Positions 5,988 to 20,937 of a stretch of 26,480 nt of DNA are shown piece by piece. Under the pieces are notes generated by a model, which worked only from the letters and a program-made list of their open reading frames with translations, did no database searches and had not been told where the DNA came from. The stretch covers positions 1 through 26,480 of the forward strand of contig SHMW01000066.1 of the NCBI GenBank assembly GCA_008080735.1. Direction: 5' to 3'. The translations under genes and the position numbers were made by a program. Each line of letters begins with the position of its first letter. The first letter of the stretch is position 1. Source of the DNA: Promethearchaeota archaeon. Its GTDB lineage: Archaea; Asgardarchaeota; Lokiarchaeia; Sigyniarchaeales; SOKP01.

Positions 5988-7049
5988 TCAAAAGAGTGAG
6001 TAATTTTTGTTATCTTGATACCAATTAACCATTTTATTGATTCCTAATTTAGGGCTTATTTTAGGCTTCCATTTAAGCATCTCTTTGGCTTTTGATATAT
6101 CAGAAATATAGATCTTTTGGTCTGCAATTCTCCAATTTTCAAATGAATAGGGAATATTCTTATCTAAAATTTGTTCTAAAAATTTTATTAATTTAATAAT
6201 TGAAATAGCGTTATTTATTCCACCTCCGATGTTAAAAATCTCTTTTACTACATCTTTTTCCAATGTTAACTCAATAAATTTTAAAAGATCAGTAATATAG
6301 AGAAGGTCTCTTACTTGTTTGCCATTCCCAAATATTATTATTGGTTCATTCCTAAGGGTCTTTTTTATGATATGTGAGACCCATCCTTGGGCTTCCCCAC
6401 CACATTGGCGTGGTCCATATATACAGGACATTCTCAAAATTAAATAATCTATATCATAGGTGTAAGCATATTCTTGGATGTATAATTCTGAACATAGCTT
6501 AGAAGTTCCGTAGGGGGTATGTTGAGTATTGATAACCGGAAAGCTCTCAGATATTCCCTGAAATGTTGGATCTCTAAATAAATATCGAGTTTCCCCTTGG
6601 GTTATATCCAGTTCGTTCACACTCCTTCCGAAAACTTTATTGGAGGAAAAATAAAAGAATTTGGGATTTGAATTCGATAACTTGAGAGCTTCCAATAGAT
6701 TTATTGTTGCTCTTAAATTATGTTCAAAGTCCATAATTGGGTTTTTTATCGAAAAATTTACTCCTGTCTGCCCAGAAGCATGAAATATATAGTCAAAAGT
6801 ATTTTTTCGAATTAAATTTTTTATAAATTCATAATCCCTTAAATCTTTTCTAATAAATCTAATATTGGCATAACCCTTAAGAACAGTGAGATTATTCTCT
6901 AATTCTTTTTCAGAGCAATGATGAAATATGTTATCTCGTGCTAAATTATCAATAATAGTAATGTTATTTGCCTTTGTCTTAGAGGCGAAATATTCAGCTA
7001 AATAGGATCCAATAAAACCCGCTCCGCCTGTGATTAATATTTCAGTCAT
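5988..7049 (-). CDS. NAD-dependent sugar epimerase/dehydratase, CDP-paratose 2-epimerase-like
   Basis: TGGAGFIG Rossmann motif, SSNKV, YGTSK (YxxxK), RMSCIYGPRQ...QGWV, GKQVRDLL. ATG at 7049 preferred over the 7073 start. Confidence 0.88.
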   Translation of the reverse strand: MTEILITGGAGFIGSYLAEYFASKTKANNITIIDNLARDNIFHHCSEKELENNLTVLKGYANIRFIRKDLRDYEFIKNLIRKNTFDYIFHASGQTGVNFSIKNPIMDFEHNLRATINLLEALKLSNSNPKFFYFSSNKVFGRSVNELDITQGETRYLFRDPTFQGISESFPVINTQHTPYGTSKLCSELYIQEYAYTYDIDYLILRMSCIYGPRQCGGEAQGWVSHIIKKTLRNEPIIIFGNGKQVRDLLYITDLLKFIELTLEKDVVKEIFNIGGGINNAISIIKLIKFLEQILDKNIPYSFENWRIADQKIYISDISKAKEMLKWKPKISPKLGINKMVNWYQDNKNYSLF

Positions 7050-7964: not shown

Positions 7965-8828
7965 TTATGTCAATCCAAAAGATTCGAAAATTAATTCGGA
8001 ATCTCTTATCAATTTACTTAAATACTCTTTTAAGGGTAATATATGAATCTGATGAGCAATCGCGGTTGAAGGTGCCATAAAACTTTTAGTATTATATTTA
8101 TATATCTTTTTATGAACGTTCTCACTAAAAATATCTAATTCAAGCCATTTTTTCTTAATATCTTCCGAGACGGGACATTCTCTGGTACTCATAAGTGCAG
8201 TTCCAAGACATACAGCATCGGCTCCCATTATTAATGCGCCAAGGAAGCCTCTGGCATCTCCAATTCCTCCAGCCGCGATAATTGGAATATCTAATAGTTT
8301 CTTCGCCATTGTAATGTTGATTAATGTTGTTTGGGTTAATGGATTCTTAAATCCTGTACCTTCTAAGCCTACGAGTGTCACAGCATCTGCACCTGATTCT
8401 TGAGCGGATATTGCATGCTTTAATACAACACATTTATGAAACCAAATCGCTCCAGATTCCTGAATTCGCTTTCCTATAAATTTTGCCTTATATCCCGAGG
8501 TTGTAAAGATACCTACATTTTCTTCTAAGGCAGTATTAACATATTTAAAATATCTTTTTTTTGCTTGATTTTTTTCATGAGAATTATTTAGTCTATGATG
8601 TGGGAGAGAGAGATTCACTCCAAATGGTTTATTTGTAAGGGTTTTCATTTTTTGAATCTCTTCTTTAAATTCATTTATATCTGGAAAATTGAGTGCTGCA
8701 ATAATTCCTAATCCCCCAGATTCCGAAAATTGGGAAGCAAACTCTGCTTTACCCCAGCCTCCAAAGGCAGCCATAATGAGGGGGTATCTTGTTTTAGTTA
8801 AATGAGTAAATCTCGTATTCCAGTCCAT
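7965..8828 (-). CDS. Nitronate monooxygenase / FabK-like FMN oxidoreductase
   Basis: T-N-K-P-F-G-V-N and PIIAAGGIGDARG...GADAVCLGT motifs of the FMN TIM barrel. Confidence 0.88.
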   Translation of the reverse strand: MDWNTRFTHLTKTRYPLIMAAFGGWGKAEFASQFSESGGLGIIAALNFPDINEFKEEIQKMKTLTNKPFGVNLSLPHHRLNNSHEKNQAKKRYFKYVNTALEENVGIFTTSGYKAKFIGKRIQESGAIWFHKCVVLKHAISAQESGADAVTLVGLEGTGFKNPLTQTTLINITMAKKLLDIPIIAAGGIGDARGFLGALIMGADAVCLGTALMSTRECPVSEDIKKKWLELDIFSENVHKKIYKYNTKSFMAPSTAIAHQIHILPLKEYLSKLIRDSELIFESFGLT

Positions 8829-8978
8829 AAGCTCGAATTTAATAAAAAGATAGTTATCTTTAATAGATAGTTAAATTTTAGGATAAAAAAATATAAAAGG
8901 AATACTATGTGATCTCGAAATAACATTTTATTATTGTAAGCTCTATATTAATTCTTAACAATCGTAATTCAGAATAAG

Positions 8979-9116
8979 TTAATCGTTTTTTTTCTTGATA
9001 TAATTGGGTTTATGAGTTTTTTCACACATCCGCCTTGAAGACCAATTCTCCCATATTTTATCTAAGTAATCTTCTACCTCATCATCTGATGGATCTTCCT
9101 TACTTTCCTCCTTCAT
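8979..9116 (-). CDS. Putative small protein (45 aa)
   Basis: Manual translation: MKEESKEDPSDDEVEDYLDKIWENWSSRRMCEKTHKPNYIKKKND. Purine-rich coding-like composition and a TTTTTAAA box ~25 nt upstream. Confidence 0.5.
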   Translation of the reverse strand: MKEESKEDPSDDEVEDYLDKIWENWSSRRMCEKTHKPNYIKKKND

Positions 9117-11373: not shown

Positions 11374-12309
11374 ATGTCAGTTCAAATGAAGGAATATGAA
11401 TGTGAGATATGCATCATCGGGGCGGGGCCAGCGGGACTAAGTGCGGGTGTATATTGCGGGCGTGCTGGTCGTGACACCATTATTCTTAAAGGAAAAGAGA
11501 AAGGCGCTCTCGAAAGAACGAAAGCAATAGAAAATTGGCTAGGAGAGCCAAAAATACAAGGAGATAGCTTATTACAGAAATTTAAGGATCACGTCAAAAG
11601 TATTGAAAATGTTCGCATAATCGAAGGTGATGTTATTTCATTAATGCTCGGAATGGGTAAAAATATGATCTCAACTAGAAATGCGAACCTCACTGCAGAT
11701 GCGGTTATAATTGCTACGGGGATGGGTAATCGTGAAGAAATTATAGAAGGTGAGTCCAAACTTGTAGGATATGGAGTATCTTATTGTGCACTCTGTGATG
11801 GACCTTTATATGTTGACAAAAAAGTGTTCCTTTATGGAGAAGACGAGGAATTAATTGAGGATGCGCTCATACTTGATCAAATGGGATGCCATGTAAATAT
11901 CATCACTCCTAAATCTCTCAATGAATTACCTAATGAAATTAAACAAGCTCAAGAAAAAGGAATTGATGTGATTCCTAACGCGGAAATTCTCGAAGTGGAA
12001 GCAAATTCTAATGGATTACTAGATAAAATAGATTATAAATTAGAAAATGATCAAGTTAAGGAAGCGGAATTAGACGGATTATTTATTTTTTCTCATGTCC
12101 CTTCAAATTCTATATTTAAGAAAGCGGGAGTAGAATTAGATGAAAACGGTAATATTAGTGTCAATGCACATCAAGAAACTAATCTAAAAGGGGTATTTGC
12201 CGCGGGGGATGTGACAGGTGGATTATATCAAGTGATTTTCGCTGTAGCTGAGGGTGGGCGTGCTGGAATTAATGCTGCAAAATATGTACGACACCTTCAA
12301 AAAGAATAA
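11374..12309 (+). CDS. trxB: Thioredoxin reductase-like flavoprotein with a degenerate NADPH-binding site
   Basis: GAGPAG FAD motif, IIATG, GVSYCALCDG redox CxxC, GVFAAGD. Confidence 0.9.
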   Translation: MSVQMKEYECEICIIGAGPAGLSAGVYCGRAGRDTIILKGKEKGALERTKAIENWLGEPKIQGDSLLQKFKDHVKSIENVRIIEGDVISLMLGMGKNMISTRNANLTADAVIIATGMGNREEIIEGESKLVGYGVSYCALCDGPLYVDKKVFLYGEDEELIEDALILDQMGCHVNIITPKSLNELPNEIKQAQEKGIDVIPNAEILEVEANSNGLLDKIDYKLENDQVKEAELDGLFIFSHVPSNSIFKKAGVELDENGNISVNAHQETNLKGVFAAGDVTGGLYQVIFAVAEGGRAGINAAKYVRHLQKE

Positions 12310-12315
12310 CTTTTC

Positions 12316-12356
12316 AGCTCACTCTTAAAGCTTAATTTTATACATATCTACAAATC
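12316..12356. repeat. Left copy of a 41-bp direct repeat (putative att / dif-like site)
   Basis: AGCTCACTCTTAAAGCTTAATTTTATACATATCTACAAATC matches 16749-16789 at 38/41 positions, with a 22-bp perfect core at 12331-12352. Confidence 0.9.
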
Positions 12357-12430
12357 TTATTATCTTAAATCCTTAGACATTTCAATTAAAATAGAGTTAT
12401 AATAGAACCAACTAATTGAATTCCAGGTTG

Positions 12431-12928
12431 TTATTTCTTTAGACTTATTTTCGTTTTAAATTCAATCCAAGGAATTACTGGTAAATTCTTTGTTTCTGGA
12501 ATTTTCTTCAAAATGTTTTTCAAATCGTTATCTTCACTCAAAAGAACCCCATTTAATGCTGCTGCAGTTGCAGCTATCCAACAATCCATGAGATCAATGT
12601 GTCCAGAATGTCTGATAATTGAGGCAATCATGCTTGCTTTTGGATTTAATTCACAATTAAAGATGTTGATAGGTAAACCAATCAAGGTTGGAAGAATCTT
12701 TTGATATCTATCTAGAACGTTAAAATCATTAGTTTTTCTATACACATTTAATAATTTATACATCGTTTCAATGAGACATATAGATGGTAAATAGACAAGA
12801 TATCCTTCAATCTCATTTTTCCAAACTCGTTTAAGATCACTTTCAAACTCATTATCCATCTTAATCTTTATACCAAATAAAGGTAAGATAAAACTTGTGT
12901 CAAGTATGAGAGGTTTAGTGTTCTTCAT
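12431..12928 (-). CDS. vapC: PIN-domain (VapC-like) toxin
   Basis: LILDTSFIL, ICLIET, DLMDCWIAATA and LLSED acidic PIN residues. Overlaps the upstream antitoxin gene. Confidence 0.88.
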   Translation of the reverse strand: MKNTKPLILDTSFILPLFGIKIKMDNEFESDLKRVWKNEIEGYLVYLPSICLIETMYKLLNVYRKTNDFNVLDRYQKILPTLIGLPINIFNCELNPKASMIASIIRHSGHIDLMDCWIAATAAALNGVLLSEDNDLKNILKKIPETKNLPVIPWIEFKTKISLKK

Positions 12929-13175
12929 TAGTTAATTTCTCCTGCAATATCCTTTCTTCTTCAATATCCTTTTCAATCTTTGTAGGCGTTCCCGTGTCAA
13001 TCACCGGCATACTTAATGCTTCTTCGATCGAATAGATCTTTTTGATGATTAACTCCCCCTTAAAAGCTTCTATTAGTACTTCATCTCCTGGATTAATACC
13101 CGCCATATCTCTTAAAGGCTTTTTAGGAAGAATTTCTCCCTTTTTCCCAACAATAGTTTTATCTTGAATGGTCAT
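12915..13175 (-). CDS. vapB: AbrB/MazE/SpoVT-family antitoxin
   Basis: VGKKGEILPKKPLRDMAGINPGDEV swapped-hairpin motif, directly upstream of the PIN gene. Confidence 0.88.
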   Translation of the reverse strand: MTIQDKTIVGKKGEILPKKPLRDMAGINPGDEVLIEAFKGELIIKKIYSIEEALSMPVIDTGTPTKIEKDIEEERILQEKLTNEEH

Positions 13176-13240
13176 ACAGATAGTATGTTTTTCGGAATAT
13201 TTAATTTTTGTCAGAAAATCTCAAAATGAAAATAATTTTA

Positions 13241-13265
13241 GGGGGAGACACTACGGGGGAGGGAG
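13241..13265. repeat. G-rich inter-module motif, copy 1 (variant)
   Basis: GGGGGAGACACTACGGGGGAGGGAG in a very AT-rich intergenic context. Confidence 0.85.
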
Positions 13266-13290
13266 CGTATAATTAATGAAGAAAAAAAAC

Positions 13291-13398
13291 TTAATCCTCT
13301 TTCTTGAAATTTTTATAATGAGTTTTTTCTAAATAATCTTCAAATTTGACCAGACTCTTATATAGCTTTGCCTTCTTAAGCTTTACCTTCTTAAGAAT
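13291..13398 (-). pseudogene. Remnant of the 3' end of a paralog of the 130-aa ORF (14385-14777)
   Basis: 13291-13380 matches 14385-14474 at 82/90 nt and encodes LKKAKLYKSLVKFEDYLEKTHYKNFKKED*. Contains a 15-bp tandem duplication (13366-13395). The frame is closed by a TGA just upstream. Confidence 0.85.
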
Positions 13399-13580
13399 CT
13401 TATTTTCCAAGGAATTTCATAGAATATGAGACGAAAAATTTACCTTTCCATCAAAAATTCCAATCTAATTCAAAGAAAACTATCGAAAATTGCCATCTAA
13501 ATGTATTTAAGAAAATATAGGGGATATTTGAAAAAATAGAATTTAGTTATTTGATTTTCTAATGAAAAATTTTTACAGGA

Positions 13581-13602
13581 GGGGGCACCACAAGGGAGGG
13601 AG
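13581..13602. repeat. G-rich inter-module motif, copy 2
   Basis: GGGGGCACCACAAGGGAGGGAG, flanked by TTTTACAGGA and ATAA. Confidence 0.9.
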
Positions 13603-13615
13603 ATAAAAGGATAAT

Positions 13616-13969
13616 TTAGGGTGATTCGAATCTAATCTCGTTTTCAGAAAGTATGATTTTTCCTGGGTTATTAAGTTTATTTACTGCATTATCTAAGTAT
13701 TTTTGAACTATACTAGCAATAATTTTTGGATCTCTTGGATGTAATTTTATATAAATAATCTTACACCTTTCTAGAAGTTCTTTTTTTATTGATAGGAAAT
13801 CAGAATCTAATGTGATGATTATGGCATTCTTTTTTATTGATAACTCTGCTACTTCACCATTCTTTATCCCAAGTTTATTTTCATCTTTCAAAGTGATTGT
13901 TTCATAGCCAAGCTTATTTATAATTTCTTTAATAGAAAGAGGTACATTTTCATCCAATAGAAATTTCAA
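13616..13969 (-). CDS. DUF5615 / Mut7-C PIN-like toxin (VapC45-like)
   Basis: MKFLLDENVP start and IIITLDSDF motif. Confidence 0.88.
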   Translation of the reverse strand: MKFLLDENVPLSIKEIINKLGYETITLKDENKLGIKNGEVAELSIKKNAIIITLDSDFLSIKKELLERCKIIYIKLHPRDPKIIASIVQKYLDNAVNKLNNPGKIILSENEIRFESP

Positions 13970-13972
13970 ATT

Positions 13973-14218
13973 CTATTGTACCTCCTTACTCAATATATTA
14001 TCTAAATTAACTTGAGAAAGGTTTTTTAATGCATCATTCCCTAATTCTATGACTTTGAGAAGAATTTGTCGATCAAGATGAGGATATTCTTTTTGAATTT
14101 CATCAATAGCATAATTCAAACCAACTAATTCATAAATTAAAGCAACAGGGATTCTCGTGCCCTTTATGACGGGCTTTCCTCCAAGGATTTCTGGGTTTGA
14201 TTCAATTAGATCCGACAT
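13973..14218 (-). CDS. DUF433 antitoxin (VapB45-like)
   Basis: NPEILGGKPVIKGTRIPV...EYPHL signature, 3 nt upstream of the DUF5615 gene. Confidence 0.92.
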   Translation of the reverse strand: MSDLIESNPEILGGKPVIKGTRIPVALIYELVGLNYAIDEIQKEYPHLDRQILLKVIELGNDALKNLSQVNLDNILSKEVQ

Positions 14219-14337
14219 TTTCTATGAAATAATAAAGAGATTCAGATATAAATATTTAATCGATAAATATGAAAAAACTCTTTATAATTAATGAAGAAAA
14301 ACGAAAATAAATTTTTTTTCTAAATTTCTTTTCAGAA

Positions 14338-14359
14338 GGGGGCACCACGGGGGAGGGAG
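14338..14359. repeat. G-rich inter-module motif, copy 3
   Basis: GGGGGCACCACGGGGGAGGGAG, flanked by TTTTCAGAA and ATAA. 20/22 identical to copy 2. Confidence 0.9.
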
Positions 14360-14384
14360 ATAATAATAAATGAAAAAAAAAAAC

Positions 14385-14777
14385 CTAATCTTCTTCCTTG
14401 AAATTTTTATAACGAATTTTTTCTAAATAATCTTCAAATTTGACCGGACTCTTATATAATTTTGCCTTCTTAAGAATTAAAGCTCCTTTTTCGGTTGTTA
14501 TAATCTCTTCAGGATCAAGATCAGTAAATAAAACTGTTTTTGATGAATCTACTAATTTTAACTCAAACATTTTTTCCATTGTTTCCTTCTCATAAGTATA
14601 TGTTGTTATGCCTGCAATTACTTCACTTTTATTACCAAATACTCTTCCATCTTTTAAAGTGAGAAATCCATCAATAATTATATAACTTCCAAGATGTAAA
14701 TCACGATATTCTGCTATTGTATTCCAAATATGATCATAAGATTCTTTTGAATCAATAATATGAATCCAGCTATACAT
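14385..14777 (-). CDS. Hypothetical protein (130 aa), candidate immunity protein
   Basis: Intact ORF directly downstream of the nuclease-domain gene, with an AAGGTAG SD-like and TTTTTAAAT TATA-like sequence upstream. No family recognised; function inferred from context only. Confidence 0.7.
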   Translation of the reverse strand: MYSWIHIIDSKESYDHIWNTIAEYRDLHLGSYIIIDGFLTLKDGRVFGNKSEVIAGITTYTYEKETMEKMFELKLVDSSKTVLFTDLDPEEIITTEKGALILKKAKLYKSPVKFEDYLEKIRYKNFKEED

Positions 14778-14864
14778 TTTTTTCTACCTTTAATAAAAAA
14801 GTATATTTAAAAATTTAGTTTATATTTTTAGTTTAACAATCAAAATTTATTTTCCTTCCATTAT

Positions 14865-16436
14865 TTAAAAAGTCCTCCAATCTCTATATGGAATTTTAGA
14901 TAATGTAATTTTTGTCAGTTCTTCAAATTTACTAATGATAAAATCCAGTCTATCTTCAGGATCAACATTATAATCTACTACGATCAAATAATATCCATCT
15001 TTATTATTCTTCTCAAAATGATCAACTTTATCTTCATCTCTAGTTATTAAATCTCGCCACGGTTTATATACTTTTGAATATTTTTTAGTCCCTTCAACTA
15101 CATCTAATTGTTTAGAAACAGCCTTATAAGCTTCAAATCCTATTTTTGGATCAGGATCATGTTGTTGACCTTGATACTCAATTGCTAATTTAATTAAATT
15201 TCCATTTTTATCTTCTATATTTAATTCTACATATCCATCAACATGAACATTTGCATGAATAAGTCCTTCTAATTCTGGAAATATTTTTGTAAGACCATAT
15301 TCGATTTGATAATTATTTTCTATATATCCTAATTCTTTAAATATATATTCACATATCTCATTGGTGATTTTCTGATTTATATACTGTCCGTCGCACTTTG
15401 GGCAATTACCCACATTCCTTTTAATATTATTATACGTATTTTCCCATACATGACCGCAGTCTTCATGTTTCCATGTTAATATTGCATCACCATAGAATTT
15501 GTTTTTACCATTATAAGATTCTATACATGCCAGAGTAAATTCCTCAAAGCTCAATTCCTTATTAGGATCATTTGGTGAAACTAATTTCAATCCTCTACTA
15601 GTTGCTTCATCCTTTGCGTTTTTTAAAGCATTTCGTAAGTATGTACTCTTTTCTCTAAAAAAATCTTCTAATATTTTTGCGGATTCTAAGGTCATTCCAA
15701 AAGCGGTTATGAACGCTACATATCTCCTTGCCATCATTTCATTAAGTTCTAGGTATGCCTCTTTAGACAAATCAACAATTCTGATAACATCATTTTGGGA
15801 AACGAGGTCACTATCTACATATTGGTTGGTTTCGGTATTAACTCCTGTAGTTATGTAGAAGGTTTCACCATTAGATTCGTGGACATACTCAATTTGATGG
15901 ACGATTTTAATTTCATCTCGATAAAATACAATGATATCTCCTTTTTTATAATGTGTGCCTTCTGGCATTAATCTCATAGGTACTTCAGCACCAGCTTGTA
16001 GCCCAAGTATGCCAGACATCGATTCACTCAGTACTTTTAATCTTCTTACATTCTTGTCCGTTTTTTCAAAGGAATTTTCATTGGAACGAGACGGAAAATC
16101 TACCTTTTCGGCAATATCCCGTTCAAATCTCAAGGGGAGGTCACTCATTAGGTATGCGCCTACACAGAGGACTAGCTGCTCGATGTGGCTTAGTAATTCC
16201 CCAGAGGTACGTTTCTGATTAATCCTTGTTAAGACTTCTTGTCTAACTTCTAAAATTTTACCGTCAGAGGATTCAATTATATCCATTCCATCATAGGACC
16301 GACCGGCAAGTGTCTCGACGGCATACCGAAGCTCTTCTACAGGAAAATGAAGTGTGTCCAGCGTTTCTTTGGGTGATTCGGATATGGGTTTCTGGGGGTC
16401 GAATAGTCGCGAATAAAGAGCTTTGATTTGGTTCAT
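14865..16436 (-). CDS. Multidomain protein: S26-like (Ser-His) peptidase + Zn ribbon + REase-like (DUF559/Vsr-type) nuclease; probably the C-terminal remnant of a larger gene
   Basis: aa ~133-222: VLSESM, GDIIVF, IVHQI, YITTGVN...D (cf. Sec11/SipW VxSGSM, GDIIVF, IVHRV, TKGDN..D). aa 322-348: WKHEDCGHVW...CPKC. aa 398-426: HVDGY...LAIEYQGQQH. Confidence 0.78.
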   Translation of the reverse strand: MNQIKALYSRLFDPQKPISESPKETLDTLHFPVEELRYAVETLAGRSYDGMDIIESSDGKILEVRQEVLTRINQKRTSGELLSHIEQLVLCVGAYLMSDLPLRFERDIAEKVDFPSRSNENSFEKTDKNVRRLKVLSESMSGILGLQAGAEVPMRLMPEGTHYKKGDIIVFYRDEIKIVHQIEYVHESNGETFYITTGVNTETNQYVDSDLVSQNDVIRIVDLSKEAYLELNEMMARRYVAFITAFGMTLESAKILEDFFREKSTYLRNALKNAKDEATSRGLKLVSPNDPNKELSFEEFTLACIESYNGKNKFYGDAILTWKHEDCGHVWENTYNNIKRNVGNCPKCDGQYINQKITNEICEYIFKELGYIENNYQIEYGLTKIFPELEGLIHANVHVDGYVELNIEDKNGNLIKLAIEYQGQQHDPDPKIGFEAYKAVSKQLDVVEGTKKYSKVYKPWRDLITRDEDKVDHFEKNNKDGYYLIVVDYNVDPEDRLDFIISKFEELTKITLSKIPYRDWRTF

Positions 16437-16748
16437 ATCTAGGGGAGCAAACAGACCTTCATAGGGGTCTCCTATCGCAATATCGGAGAGCTGGACATCA
16501 AAGGCAGTCTCGAGGTGCCCCGATGAAAGAGATTGCTCTGAAATTATAGTGAACTCTTGAGGTTCTGAGATTCTGTTTTAAAGGCTTCCTTCAACAGTAG
16601 ATACTCTCGTTTGTCCATAAGTTTGAAGCAAGTCGGTCTCTATTTCAATTTTATTACAGATTCGAGAGGTTCGCAAATTCAGTCTTCGATCCCGAAATGG
16701 GCAGTCCTATAGGTTGTTCCGAAATACTCGGTGATTTGCTTGATGGTT
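16437..16748 (-). pseudogene. Decayed 5' extension of the 523-aa gene
   Basis: The same frame stays open for 47 codons upstream of the ATG (to 16577), hits TAA at 16578-16580, then is open again to 16706. GC-rich, coding-like sequence continues up to the right direct repeat. Confidence 0.6.
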
Positions 16749-16789
16749 AGCTCATTCTTAAAACTTAATTTTATACATATCTACATATC
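16749..16789. repeat. Right copy of the 41-bp direct repeat (putative att / dif-like site, in the xer promoter region)
   Basis: AGCTCATTCTTAAAACTTAATTTTATACATATCTACATATC, ending 38 bp before the xer ATG. Confidence 0.9.
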
Positions 16790-16826
16790 ACACCATTTTT
16801 TGTAAGATTTCACGAATAATTGTAAT

Positions 16827-17750
16827 ATGAACGATTTTAAAATATCTGATTTTATCGATGATTTTCTTATAGCGAAAGAGGTTGAAGAAGGTTGTCGTCC
16901 TTCAACAATTCGAGCTTATAGATATGATTTAGAGAAATTTATGAAAATTGTTGGAGATGTGGAAATAAATCATAAATTAATGCGTCAAAAAGTGCGCTTT
17001 TTTCTGAAAAAGCTCAAAGATAAAGGATATACCAAACGGTCTATCAGCCGGAAAATCGCTTGTTTACGTTCATTTTTTAAATTTCTTAGTCTAAATGAAT
17101 ACGTTGAAAAAAATCCAATGAATACGATAAAAAGCCCGAAAATTAGAAGTGAAGAAAGCCTACCAAAATTTTTAGATTTGAAAGATATGAAAAAAATCTT
17201 TGAGGATCTTAAGAATCGCAAGAAGTTTAATTCAAAAAAAAGCAAACGCTACTATTTAATGGTAAGGTTGTTATATGCGACAATGGCTAGAGTAAGTGAA
17301 TTATGTAATATTCGAATTCGAGATGTGAATTTCGAGAAGGGATATATACGATTGCGGGGCAAAGGTAATAAAGAAAGAATAGTTCCAGTGGATAAAAAGA
17401 CGCTTTATTTTATTAAGGAACATTTAGATAATAGGCTCGTTTATGAACCAGATGATTTTTTGATCGTAAATACGCGAAATGAGCAACTTCATCCGAGAGT
17501 AGTACAAAATGATATTAATATCATAAAGGAAAAATGCGGATTTCCTGAATCTAAAGATATCACTCCCCATGTCTTTCGGCACACAGGAGCCACACACTTG
17601 CGAAGGTCTGGTATGGATATAAGTGAGCTCCAAGATATTCTTGGGCATTCCTCACCAAATACCACTCGAATATATGCTAAGAATGATATCACGAAACTTA
17701 AGGAGTCTTATAATGTAATGCATCCTCTTAGTAATTCAAGAGAACTCTAA
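16827..17750 (+). CDS. xerA: XerA/XerC/D-type tyrosine recombinase
   Basis: SAM-like N-domain (STIRAYRYDL, SISRKIACLRSFFKFL) and a full catalytic set: R (MARVSE), K (GKGNK), HxxR (HVFRH), LGH, Y (TTRIY). 307 aa, with no IntI-specific insertion. Confidence 0.9.
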   Translation: MNDFKISDFIDDFLIAKEVEEGCRPSTIRAYRYDLEKFMKIVGDVEINHKLMRQKVRFFLKKLKDKGYTKRSISRKIACLRSFFKFLSLNEYVEKNPMNTIKSPKIRSEESLPKFLDLKDMKKIFEDLKNRKKFNSKKSKRYYLMVRLLYATMARVSELCNIRIRDVNFEKGYIRLRGKGNKERIVPVDKKTLYFIKEHLDNRLVYEPDDFLIVNTRNEQLHPRVVQNDINIIKEKCGFPESKDITPHVFRHTGATHLRRSGMDISELQDILGHSSPNTTRIYAKNDITKLKESYNVMHPLSNSREL

Positions 17751-17882
17751 TTATATTATACTTTTTCTATAATGTCTGCTTTATTCTTTAAATTTTATAT
17801 CTAAATCTAATTAAAAGTTTGATTGTTTTAACAAAGACTGGACTAATAAATTATTTTGAACCAAAAGAGATATTTGATAGAT

Positions 17883-18578
17883 ATGGAAAAAATTATTAGA
17901 CTCATCTGTTTAAATGGAAGTCCAAATAAAAATGGGAACACTGCAACTGCTATGGCTTGGGTTGCTGCTGGAGCTGAAGAATTAGGAGCTAAAGTTGAAT
18001 GGCTTCATATAGCTGATCTAGATATTAATTATTGTAAAGGTTGCAATAGTTGTCTTAAAACTGGGAAATGCGTTCTTTCCGATGATTTGCAAATAGTTTT
18101 GGAAAAGATCCGCGATGCCGATGGAGTGATCTCTGGATCGCCAGTTTATGGAGGAAGACCGACTGCTCAGTTAAAGACTTTATTGGATCGTCTTACTTTA
18201 TTGAAACTTTATGCTGGGATTCTTGGAGACGGTTTTAGCGTGGGTGTAGCAACAAGCGGAATAGCCCCGACAAAGAGAGTCGCAAAAGATTCGGCTAATA
18301 TGTTTGGGAAAAGGATAGGTGTGATGGGGATAAAAACCGCGAGTCTTAATGGTGAGTTTACCTCACTTCAAATCAATTCTGATCACAAAAAAAAGAAAAA
18401 TGCAAAAAAATTGGGAAGAAAATTAGTAAAGAAATGTCGGCAAGGAGGGAAAACTTGGTCCTTAAAATCAGCATGGATAGGATTTCTAAGGAAATATTTT
18501 CTAAAACGATTATTAAAGAAAAATAGGGTAAAATTCGCGGGAGTGATCGAAATTTGGAAAGAAAAGGGCTGGTATTAA
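17883..18578 (+). CDS. Flavodoxin-family / iron-sulfur flavoprotein (NADPH-dependent FMN reductase family)
   Basis: GSPNKNGNT, CKGCNSCLKTGKC and GSPVY motifs. ATG at 17883 preferred over TTG at 17856. Confidence 0.9.
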   Translation: MEKIIRLICLNGSPNKNGNTATAMAWVAAGAEELGAKVEWLHIADLDINYCKGCNSCLKTGKCVLSDDLQIVLEKIRDADGVISGSPVYGGRPTAQLKTLLDRLTLLKLYAGILGDGFSVGVATSGIAPTKRVAKDSANMFGKRIGVMGIKTASLNGEFTSLQINSDHKKKKNAKKLGRKLVKKCRQGGKTWSLKSAWIGFLRKYFLKRLLKKNRVKFAGVIEIWKEKGWY

Positions 18579-18736
18579 GAAGCGCTAAAATTATTTAAAT
18601 TTCAAGAAGGATAATTTACTGAATGCTTAAATTTCTAAACATTTGATACATTATTATTAAACAATAATATAAGAAAATTTAAGTTAGAGAGTTCTATATT
18701 AAAATAAACCCGAATAAGAACAAACTATGCGTTTTT

Positions 18737-19927
18737 ATGGATGAGAATAAATTTCGCGCGGAATTTAGTAAAAAATCAGTATTCCGACAAGCTAGCTCGT
18801 TAGATTTTAGTTATGTGCCCGACACACTTTATTGCCGTGATGAGACTATCAAAGAATTGATACATAACTTCCGAAGAATCATTGAGGAGGACATGCAACC
18901 CACAATCAATATTCTAATCACCGGAAAAGGAGGTGTGGGTAAAACGGTCACGGCACGCTATTTTGGAAAGAACTTCCGCACGATCGCATTGGAAAATAAT
19001 GTGAAAATTTTCATAGAATATTTCAATTGCATCAATTTTCGCTCTAAGAGTAAAATAATTCGTGAGCTCTTGGCGAAATATACTCATGGTTCGGGAAGAG
19101 GGTTTTCAGATGATGAGGCAATTAAATTAATTTTATCCAAGCTCATTCGGGATAAAGGCTATATATTACTTATTATTGATGAGATACATCTACTGAAACC
19201 AAAAGAGGTTTGGGCTCTATTAGACATTGCAGAATCCTATGGCCATCAAAACGCGAAATTATCTATCTTGCTTATTTCAAGAACAAAAGATTGGATGCGG
19301 ATTGAAACAGAAAGGATTCTTAGCAGGCTAAATTCAAAAATAAAATTAAGTCCTTATAACTATGAAGAATCCTTAAAAATTCTAAAATACCGCACTGAAA
19401 TCGCATTTAAAGATGGTGTGATAAGTGATGATATTGTTGAGATGATTGCCCAAATAGTCGTACAACATGGGAATATGAGACATGGGATTGAAATTCTTCG
19501 AAAATGTGGGCTATATTCAGATAAAGAGGGATTTGATCACATTACAGCAGATATGGTACGAGAAGCCTCAGATCAAGTATATCCAACATTCCGAGGAGAT
19601 ATAGTAGATAAATTGAATGATCAGGAGCTATTTGCACTTTATGGTATTGCCCAATCTCTATTAACCAGGGAGGAGCCCTACACGATTGTAGATGACGCGT
19701 TTGAACAGTATAATATCATATGTGAGACGTATGATATGGATTCTCATGTTAAAATGTCATTTAGGAAATATGTGCGCCAACTGGATGAGTTAAAAATCAT
19801 CGCGACCAAAACTGTACGAATTAATGAAAATAAACGAGGAAGGCACCTTGAGATTACGATGCTAGATATCCCTCCAAAAAAATTGTTGGAATTATTAGAT
19901 AATATCTTCGAGAAAAAATTCCAATAG
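18737..19927 (+). CDS. cdc6: Orc1/Cdc6 family replication initiator
   Basis: LDFSYVPDTLYCRD, Walker A GKGGVGKT, Walker B LLIIDE, PY...IL..R, G(N)MR sensor 2, and a C-terminal winged helix with RGR. Confidence 0.93.
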   Translation: MDENKFRAEFSKKSVFRQASSLDFSYVPDTLYCRDETIKELIHNFRRIIEEDMQPTINILITGKGGVGKTVTARYFGKNFRTIALENNVKIFIEYFNCINFRSKSKIIRELLAKYTHGSGRGFSDDEAIKLILSKLIRDKGYILLIIDEIHLLKPKEVWALLDIAESYGHQNAKLSILLISRTKDWMRIETERILSRLNSKIKLSPYNYEESLKILKYRTEIAFKDGVISDDIVEMIAQIVVQHGNMRHGIEILRKCGLYSDKEGFDHITADMVREASDQVYPTFRGDIVDKLNDQELFALYGIAQSLLTREEPYTIVDDAFEQYNIICETYDMDSHVKMSFRKYVRQLDELKIIATKTVRINENKRGRHLEITMLDIPPKKLLELLDNIFEKKFQ

Positions 19928-20346: not shown

Positions 20347-20937
20347 ATGTTCAATTTAAAAGAATTCAAAATTAATAAATATATTATCTTAAAGCTTGAA
20401 AACGGAATCACTAATATTTATATTAATGGAAAATTCTTTCGAAAGTGTAAATCCTTATTATTTGAAATCTATCCAAAAAACTTTAATAAATATAATTCGG
20501 TAAACTCTATTGATGAAGCCCTATCAATATATGGAAATGAAGAAAGAAAAAAAATAGTTGAGCTGGAACCCGAAACAGAATTTTGGGGGCATTTACTTCA
20601 TTCAAATCTATCCTTTCCTTTATTAAAGGAGTTATATAAGTGTGGGGACATTAAAGCTAGAAAACAATTTATTGAAGAGATAATTTCAAGACTGAAATCG
20701 AATTATTTACCCGTAAAAAAATACCTAATGTTAGGGGAATTCCTAACGGTTTTTAATGTAGAAGAAATTAATCAACTCTTTCAAGACGATCAAATAGGGT
20801 TTCTTAATATTCTAATAGATATAATAGAAGTAGAAATTAAAAATGCCATAAAAAAAGATAATTCTGCTATAGAAATTATTCCCTTGTTGGAAAAATTAAA
20901 AAAGGAGTCTAGGAAATGGAAAATTGCTAAGATATAG
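20347..20937 (+). CDS. Hypothetical protein of an expanded Lokiarchaeia family (often N-terminal to LRR domains)
   Basis: EFKINKYIILKLENGITNIYING, SIDEA, PETEFWGH, LLHSNLSFPLLKEL and GD..A...F.EEI patterns, recognised from memory of Loki proteins. Confidence 0.65.
   Translation: MFNLKEFKINKYIILKLENGITNIYINGKFFRKCKSLLFEIYPKNFNKYNSVNSIDEALSIYGNEERKKIVELEPETEFWGHLLHSNLSFPLLKELYKCGDIKARKQFIEEIISRLKSNYLPVKKYLMLGEFLTVFNVEEINQLFQDDQIGFLNILIDIIEVEIKNAIKKDNSAIEIIPLLEKLKKESRKWKIAKI

Follow-up and report, generated by a model that had tools for sequence, protein, structure and literature searches.

The 26,480-nucleotide (nt) contig SHMW01000066.1 of a Promethearchaeota archaeon (Lokiarchaeia, Sigyniarchaeales; assembly GCA_008080735.1), referred to here as the window, carries a 4.4-kb segment between trxB and xer, two host genes that are close neighbors in related genomes. 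The source assembly (G000) is a metagenome-assembled genome (MAG) of 4.15 Mb in 140 contigs, is 93% complete, and holds the window as contig C66. The left flank of the segment is a trxB-like thioredoxin-disulfide reductase gene (11374-12309, plus strand; Pfam Pyr_redox_2, 8.7e-32), which lies directly upstream of xer in relatives. To the right are xerA, encoding a tyrosine recombinase (16827-17750, plus strand), and, further on, the orc1/cdc6 replication initiator gene of the host (18737-19927, plus strand; Pfam Cdc6_lid, AAA_22 and Cdc6_C), which follows xer in relatives. The segment itself, called the island below, contains six open reading frames (ORFs), all on the minus strand. No tRNA genes were found in the window, and an Rfam search of 12000-19000 returned nothing relevant.

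The island is bracketed by a 41-nt direct repeat. Its two copies (12316-12356 and 16749-16789, both given on the plus strand) are identical at 38/41 positions (93%), with mismatches at repeat positions 7, 15 and 38 and an exact core of 22 nt. This core, CTTAATTTTATACATATCTACA, occurs exactly twice in the window and exactly twice in the whole 4.15-Mb assembly, while 100 shuffles of the window contained it zero times, even at three mismatches. In relatives the trxB-xer gap measures only 82-150 nt in 10 family genomes; of three metagenome contigs, two fall in this range and one has a gap of 227 nt. Overall, trxB lies within about 150 nt of xer in about half of the family genomes. Because the two genes nearly adjoin in these relatives, empty sites exist. 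The closest long contig, L042, encodes flanking proteins that are 88-93% identical to those of the window in the order g9406-g10419-trxB-xer-cdc6-g20969. Compared with this order, G000 contains additional DNA at three places, namely the island, an FMN reductase gene that separates xer from cdc6, and a gene of 196 amino acids (aa) that follows cdc6. When both junctions were aligned with two empty sites, each repeat copy aligned to the trxB-xer spacer. The repeat is homologous to a single host spacer and therefore behaves as the attachment sites attL (left copy) and attR (right copy) derived from one attB, and att sites of this kind, direct repeats that match the single attB of the host, are what is seen in classical integrative elements. 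The 4.4-kb segment is a genuine insertion, and the sequence of its repeat is of host origin. A transposon with a long target duplication was ruled out because no terminal inverted repeats were seen when the ends of the island were checked by eye. In the search for a free element with the same attP, no match was obtained to the 22-nt core in genome contigs or to a 20-nt sub-string in viral contigs.

Most of the genes between the repeats resemble addiction or conflict genes. Nearest to attL, a gene for a PIN-domain (VapC-like) toxin (12431-12928, minus strand; Pfam PIN, 1.4e-9) overlaps one for an AbrB/MazE-type antitoxin (12915-13175, minus strand), whose match to Pfam MazE_antitoxin (2e-4) lies below the curated cut-off and is supported by the gene arrangement. 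A second pair consists of a putative toxin gene encoding a PIN-like DUF5615 protein (13616-13969, minus strand; Pfam DUF5615, 2.1e-19) and its putative antitoxin partner encoding a DUF433 protein (13973-14218, minus strand; Pfam DUF433, 2.2e-17). The remaining pair is a 5′-truncated nuclease-like gene (14865-16577, minus strand) and its partner, a 130-aa gene (14385-14777, minus strand). The latter has no Pfam, NCBIfam, PADLOC or PHROG match, but is 55% identical to a 131-aa gene that follows a homolog of the nuclease-like gene in the Lokiarchaeial contig L037.

The nuclease-like gene is open for 570 codons, within which a conserved short form (14865-16019, 384 aa) has a signal-peptidase-like fold, a Zn ribbon and an endonuclease-like C-terminus. 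Weak matches were obtained to archaeal signal peptidase I (NCBIfam), to endonuclease PHROGs and to DUF4379 (Pfam, Zn ribbon). Residues 140-515 of the 523-aa ORF are 78% identical to the 376-aa protein P0002, and homologs begin at residue 140. Residues 18-281 of the open frame, in turn, align to residues 336-603 of a 1009-aa protein in the related genome G003. What the island retains is therefore the 3′ portion of a longer gene, with the cut lying about 170 nt from attR. The partner gene has left a decayed duplicate of its 3′ end, including its G-rich motif, at 13236-13385 (minus strand), a 150-nt repeat that is 86% identical to 14330-14479; tblastn places the last 17 residues of the 131-aa homolog at 13297-13347 within it. 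With one gene truncated next to attR and another partially duplicated, the island has decayed. Large proteins of about 1000-1100 aa in three contigs (L057, 4929-7958; L058, 7034-10366; L059, 6761-9856) contain the central region and the signal-peptidase-like domain of the island gene. Their C-termini differ, one having a LAGLIDADG domain, and each is followed by an ORF of at least 145 aa (275-278 aa in L058 and L059), a pattern that recalls polymorphic toxins with swappable tips.

The G-rich motif, GGGGGCACCACGGGGGAGGGAG, is a 53-nt sequence present in three co-oriented copies (13217-13269, 13554-13606 and 14311-14363, the last listed on the plus strand) that set the toxin-antitoxin modules apart, and it is also found 3′ of the 131/132-aa genes in L037 (4487-4530 and 10865-10908). 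This layout brings to mind an integron-like platform, in which xerA would capture cassettes and the island would be a cassette array with the G-rich motifs as its borders. The island genes are all oriented away from xer, the three motifs lie between toxin-antitoxin modules in one orientation, and the NCBIfam model that identifies XerA is annotated 'recombinase/integron integrase'. We regard such a platform as highly improbable. The family genomes with trxB within about 150 nt of xer, about half of the total, have no cassettes there, and the motifs are G-rich on one strand, being neither inverted repeats nor hairpin-forming as attC sites are. The motif follows the 131-aa gene in unrelated contexts and therefore belongs to the module of that gene. 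A 41-nt repeat at both ends is no integron feature, and the recombinase reaches only 98.9 bits against the integron integrase model TIGR02249, whose cut-off is 265.

The recombinase next to the island is encoded outside it, as xerA starts 38 nt to the right of the right repeat copy. Its product has a Phage_integrase domain (Pfam, 3.2e-42) preceded by a SAM-like N-terminal domain, and scores 241.2 bits against the archaeal XerA model NF040815 recomb_XerA_Arch (cut-off 220). A match to XerA was present in 38/40 of the related genomes searched, at 47-93% identity, and in the family the synteny is conserved, with trxB directly upstream of xer and orc1/cdc6 directly downstream. Model score, distribution and gene order identify the recombinase as the XerA of the host, with a chromosomal gene that is present once and has been inherited vertically. 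It is also the only intact PF00589 gene in the assembly. Searches of the assembly, which is 93% complete and may lack a helper element, detected neither a serine recombinase nor an archaeal phage integrase. Within the island, no PF00589 or other recombinase domain was detected among the six ORFs. An earlier note on this DNA had described the 41-nt repeat with its 22-nt core as bracketing the accessory genes, had expected an empty site in relatives, and had assigned the recombinase to the host, outside the repeats, with none in the island. The repeat search, the trxB-xer distances in relatives, and the position and family of xerA bear it out on each of these points.

These observations raise the question of whether XerA itself made the joint. 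In such a scenario, XerA bound to an array of half-sites in front of its own gene would have integrated an integrase-less circle at a non-canonical site in the repeat, resembling in a broad sense the IMEXs of bacteria (integrative mobile elements that exploit Xer). In favor of it are the lack of a recombinase in the island and the status of XerA as the only intact tyrosine recombinase in an assembly that yielded neither a serine recombinase nor an archaeal phage integrase. A canonical site is a different matter. The earlier note had parsed the repeat as a dif-like 11-6-11 sequence, but the arms of this 28-mer match at just 3/11 positions in the left copy and 4/11 in the right copy, against a mean of 3.03/11 for random 28-mers of the G000 genome, so the parse lacks dyad symmetry. 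The likeness to the Thermococcales dif arm described in the note concerns one arm only. The 28-mer has no counterpart in the xer upstream regions of 29 relatives, where even the closest sequences show 8-13 mismatches of 28. The note had proposed that this was the dif site of the lineage and had itself named lack of conservation in relatives as the result that would count against the idea; on those grounds the proposal is not supported. Nor does the spacer behave as the integration hotspot with variable cargo that was predicted: among 24 family genomes and three metagenome contigs surveyed at the trxB-xer spacer, no other repeat-flanked insertion was found. Longer trxB-xer gaps in G002, G007, G018 and G001 contain single unrelated genes without flanking repeats, and were for this reason rejected as recurrent use of the site.

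A different palindrome is conserved next to xer. In the window this U site (16783-16810, plus strand) has the 11-6-11 form ACATATCACAC-CATTTT-TTGTAAGATTT, and overlaps the right end of attR. Its consensus upstream of xer in relatives is AGATATTACAC-N6-GTGTAATATCT, with an arm symmetry of 6-10/11, and it was found in at least 13 genomes and contigs; in the relatives L004-L017 it lies just before xer. The site ends about 20-30 nt before the xer start codon, has extra ATATCAC/ATATTAC half-sites on either side, and accompanies xer even where a gene other than trxB lies upstream. A weight matrix built from relatives only ranked the window site third of the 8.3 million positions scanned in G000. Its own arm symmetry is 7/11 (a value of at least 7 has a P of about 0.016). 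In G016 the exact pattern occurs only once. Allowing two mismatches across the family gave roughly 120 matches versus about 66 in the control (summed per genome), a setting that is too loose to judge uniqueness in these AT-rich genomes. An exact match on G000 contig C11 was taken as chance because it falls within the coding frame of a TPR-like protein. On contig C283 of G023 (1656-1680, L073), which is not the xer-bearing contig, an intergenic region contains a perfect palindrome of the U type, GATATTAC-N9-GTAATATC, together with an outer ATATCC element; it hints that a U-type site can exist apart from the xer promoter. In G001 the xer contig (C693, L008) ends at 1-60 in a GC-rich hairpin-like sequence, CCCCGTCC..GGGCGGGG, which may be a repeat element at which the assembly broke off upstream of xer.

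A second palindrome-like sequence, the D site, is located upstream of cdc6 (18662-18689, plus strand). Its motif, TATAAGAAAnTTTAAACTTAA, is found in the xer-cdc6 spacer of 5-6 relatives, and the G000 copy, a weak weight-matrix match of 8.8 bits, aligns to the spacer of L042. The site takes the form ATTAAGTATAA-GAAANT-TTAAACTTAAA, of the ATAA-N6-TTAT type, in the spacers of L012, L015, L016, L020 and L021. The D site could be a dif site, an origin recognition element or a cdc6 promoter element. From its pattern and position, the U site is a candidate XerA binding site, either as the dif-like part of a xerA/dif module or as an autoregulatory operator; it overlaps the likely xer promoter and therefore could be an operator. 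No description of an Asgard dif site was found in the literature searched.

The position of the crossover relative to the U site bears directly on the role of XerA. The repeat ends at 16789, 7 nt into the left arm of the U site, and its remaining 34 nt are non-palindromic, species-specific spacer. To the right of 16789, attR reads on into an arm end and spacer of host type (..CACAC CATTTT TTGTAAG..), as in relatives, whereas to the right of 12356 attL continues into unrelated element DNA. Since host-like sequence is present only to the right of 16789, the crossover took place inside the repeat and outside the central region of the U site, to the left of 16789 and at least 4 nt from that central region. 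On the full-site matrix, the attL equivalent of the U site receives -14 bits. A half-site search of 12300-12450 detected none that reached 6 bits, and for both types of xer-linked palindrome the half-site scores at attL do not exceed background. Pieces of the 41-nt repeat that resemble arms of the D site score at background and are wrongly spaced, and no dif-like (U-type) site was found anywhere in the island. Only a single palindrome (16783-16810) is therefore present at the two junctions, where IMEXs have dif-like 11-6-11 sites at both, and the att core lacks the dyad symmetry and central crossover of such sites.

These data make integration by XerA rather unlikely. The insertion does lie in a spacer with a conserved xer-linked palindrome and extra half-sites, and the repeat spans the outer-left ATATC element as well as 7 nt of the U left arm. 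For the XerA of Pyrococcus, binding to unrelated att structures has also been reported, at lower affinity (Badel et al. 2021, PMC8371274). On the other hand, the crossover falls outside the U-site central region, attL is devoid of a Xer-type half-site above background, and the 28-mer of the earlier note is not dyad-symmetric. Known IMEX attP sites mimic dif, whereas the repeat includes 34 nt of non-palindromic spacer, and a second repeat-flanked insertion is missing from the genomes and contigs surveyed. The full claim, that XerA on a multi-half-site array caught an integrase-less circle beside its cognate palindrome and that the island is the first Asgard and archaeal Xer-exploiting island, we consider doubtful.

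Elements with related cargo point to another enzyme. In L037, the pair of nuclease-like and partner genes occurs twice, each time divergently adjoining a tyrosine integrase gene with a small upstream ORF, and a D5-type primase is encoded nearby. A related integrase gene lies 1.3 kb from the long form of the nuclease-like gene in G003. The integrases of L037 and G003 are 24-28% identical to XerA and reach 82-90 bits on the XerA model. Further copies of the pair occur in contexts without an integrase, and a search with the nuclease-like protein in viral and genome contigs found no contexts beyond these. Within G000 itself, contig C44 contains a decayed L037-type tyrosine integrase (fragment 8368-8839, several stops, 61-66% identical to the L037 integrase) inside a 2.3-kb remnant between 78-nt direct repeats (6659-6736 and 8952-9028). 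A host gene of 371 aa overlaps the left repeat copy with its 5′ end. The L037-type element family has thus become integrated in this lineage by its own enzyme and then decayed, leaving long repeats at non-tRNA sites. An own integrase is thus present in the related elements L037, L057 and C44, and these gene neighborhoods show the kinship of the island cargo with mobile elements.

Rather than integration by XerA, we therefore favor a decayed integrative element as the origin of the island, a reading to which we give an even chance. The integrase of the element would have been lost or would have acted in trans. Under this reading, a 41-nt attP would have recombined with the matching trxB-xerA spacer of the host (attB) by conservative site-specific recombination, with the crossover inside the 22-nt identical core. 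As to which enzyme made the joint, we infer that the element family probably used a tyrosine integrase of its own, lost since then or provided in trans, and not the neighboring XerA. The cargo that remains would be the addiction and conflict genes, namely the VapBC-like pair, the DUF433/DUF5615 pair, and the truncated nuclease-like gene with its partner.

Several points weigh against a decayed element of this kind. Landing in the spacer of the only intact tyrosine recombinase of the host, beside a palindrome, would be a coincidence of about 1 in a few thousand spacers. Elements normally target conserved genes, and a 41-nt attP for a fast-evolving, species-specific spacer is unusual. No integrase remnant or split integrase was found in the island by tblastn, including the stretch beside attR (16020-16748), so the own integrase that classical elements carry beside an att site is absent. 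The 5′-truncated gene could be an 'orphan' toxin-tip cassette and not a deletion scar. Finally, a comparison of the 41-nt repeat with the att regions of L037 and the C44 remnant gave no similarity above that of shuffled controls, and the C44 repeat is unrelated to the one in the window.

The first of these points loses some force in view of the neighborhood, and so does the positional argument for XerA. The trxB-xerA-cdc6 region appears to be locally plastic and to gather accessory genes. The second extra segment of G000, the FMN reductase gene between xer and cdc6 (17856-18578, plus strand; Pfam FMN_red), is absent from that position in L042, G005 and six other relatives. The 196-aa gene after cdc6 (window 20347-20937) is not in the closest contig L042, and in G006 (contig C116, L072, 2702-4274) a peptidase S41 gene directly follows the xer stop codon without a true repeat, the apparent repeat around it being merely a T-run. 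Such general plasticity weakens the case for XerA that is based on position.

It also allows for an origin by Campbell-type homologous recombination or another non-site-specific route, with a circle that carried about 41 nt of host spacer entering a plastic locus. A circle of this sort is conceivable, for example from an earlier imprecise excision. The neighborhood is unusually variable, as the FMN_red gene, the 196-aa gene and the G006 peptidase S41 gene attest, other relatives hold single unrelated genes in the trxB-xer gap without repeats, and the repeat of the island has no dyad symmetry. We nevertheless consider such a route improbable, given that 41 nt is short for homologous recombination and that the cargo is typical of mobile elements. 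Moreover, the other local insertions lack repeats, and the island therefore differs from them in kind.

Compared with known systems, the island viewed as a decayed integrative element is closest to class II (pNOB8-type, lambda-like) archaeal elements, their integrase-less remnants, and the cis-mobilizable elements (CIMEs) of bacteria. It shares with these a repeat of tens of nt equal to the host site, toxin-antitoxin and conflict cargo, and decay by deletion, and its relatives carry their own tyrosine integrase next to one end, as class II elements do. It differs from them in that no integrase or integrase fragment is left, and its target is a fast-evolving intergenic spacer before the host xerA instead of a tRNA or conserved gene. 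With the IMEXs, such as CTX-phi, VGJ-phi and TLC-phi of Vibrio cholerae and the gonococcal genetic island (XerCD/dif), it has in common the lack of its own recombinase, a position beside the probable site of the host Xer system, and flanking repeats. However, IMEX junctions are two dif-like 28-bp sites with a central crossover, whereas the island has one palindrome with the crossover outside it, and its repeat is non-palindromic spacer DNA, unlike dif sites. IMEXs are listed from bacteria only by Castillo et al. (2017, PMC5357621), and neither IMEXs nor Asgard archaea are mentioned by Badel et al. (2021, PMC8371274). If XerA did make the joint, Xer hijacking would extend from bacteria to the archaeal relatives of eukaryotes, and capture by XerA would imply that the U palindrome is an Asgard dif site in a xerA/dif module.

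The more useful by-product of this analysis is a testable candidate target of XerA in a Lokiarchaeial family, in the form of the U site upstream of xerA and the D site upstream of orc1/cdc6. The U site resembles XerS/difSL, XerH/difH and archaeal xerA/dif modules in being a 28-bp 11-6-11 palindrome directly upstream of a single Xer gene. For Thermococcales, Cortez et al. (2010, PMC2958812) found that dif does not adjoin xerA. The candidate U arms (AGATATTACAC) differ from the Thermococcales dif in sequence. What sets the Lokiarchaeial arrangement apart from known modules is that the candidate site overlaps the likely xer promoter and that a second palindrome is located upstream of cdc6; some archaea are known to harbor a xerA/dif module (Castillo et al. 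2017, PMC5357621), to which the U site with its adjoining xerA may be a counterpart.

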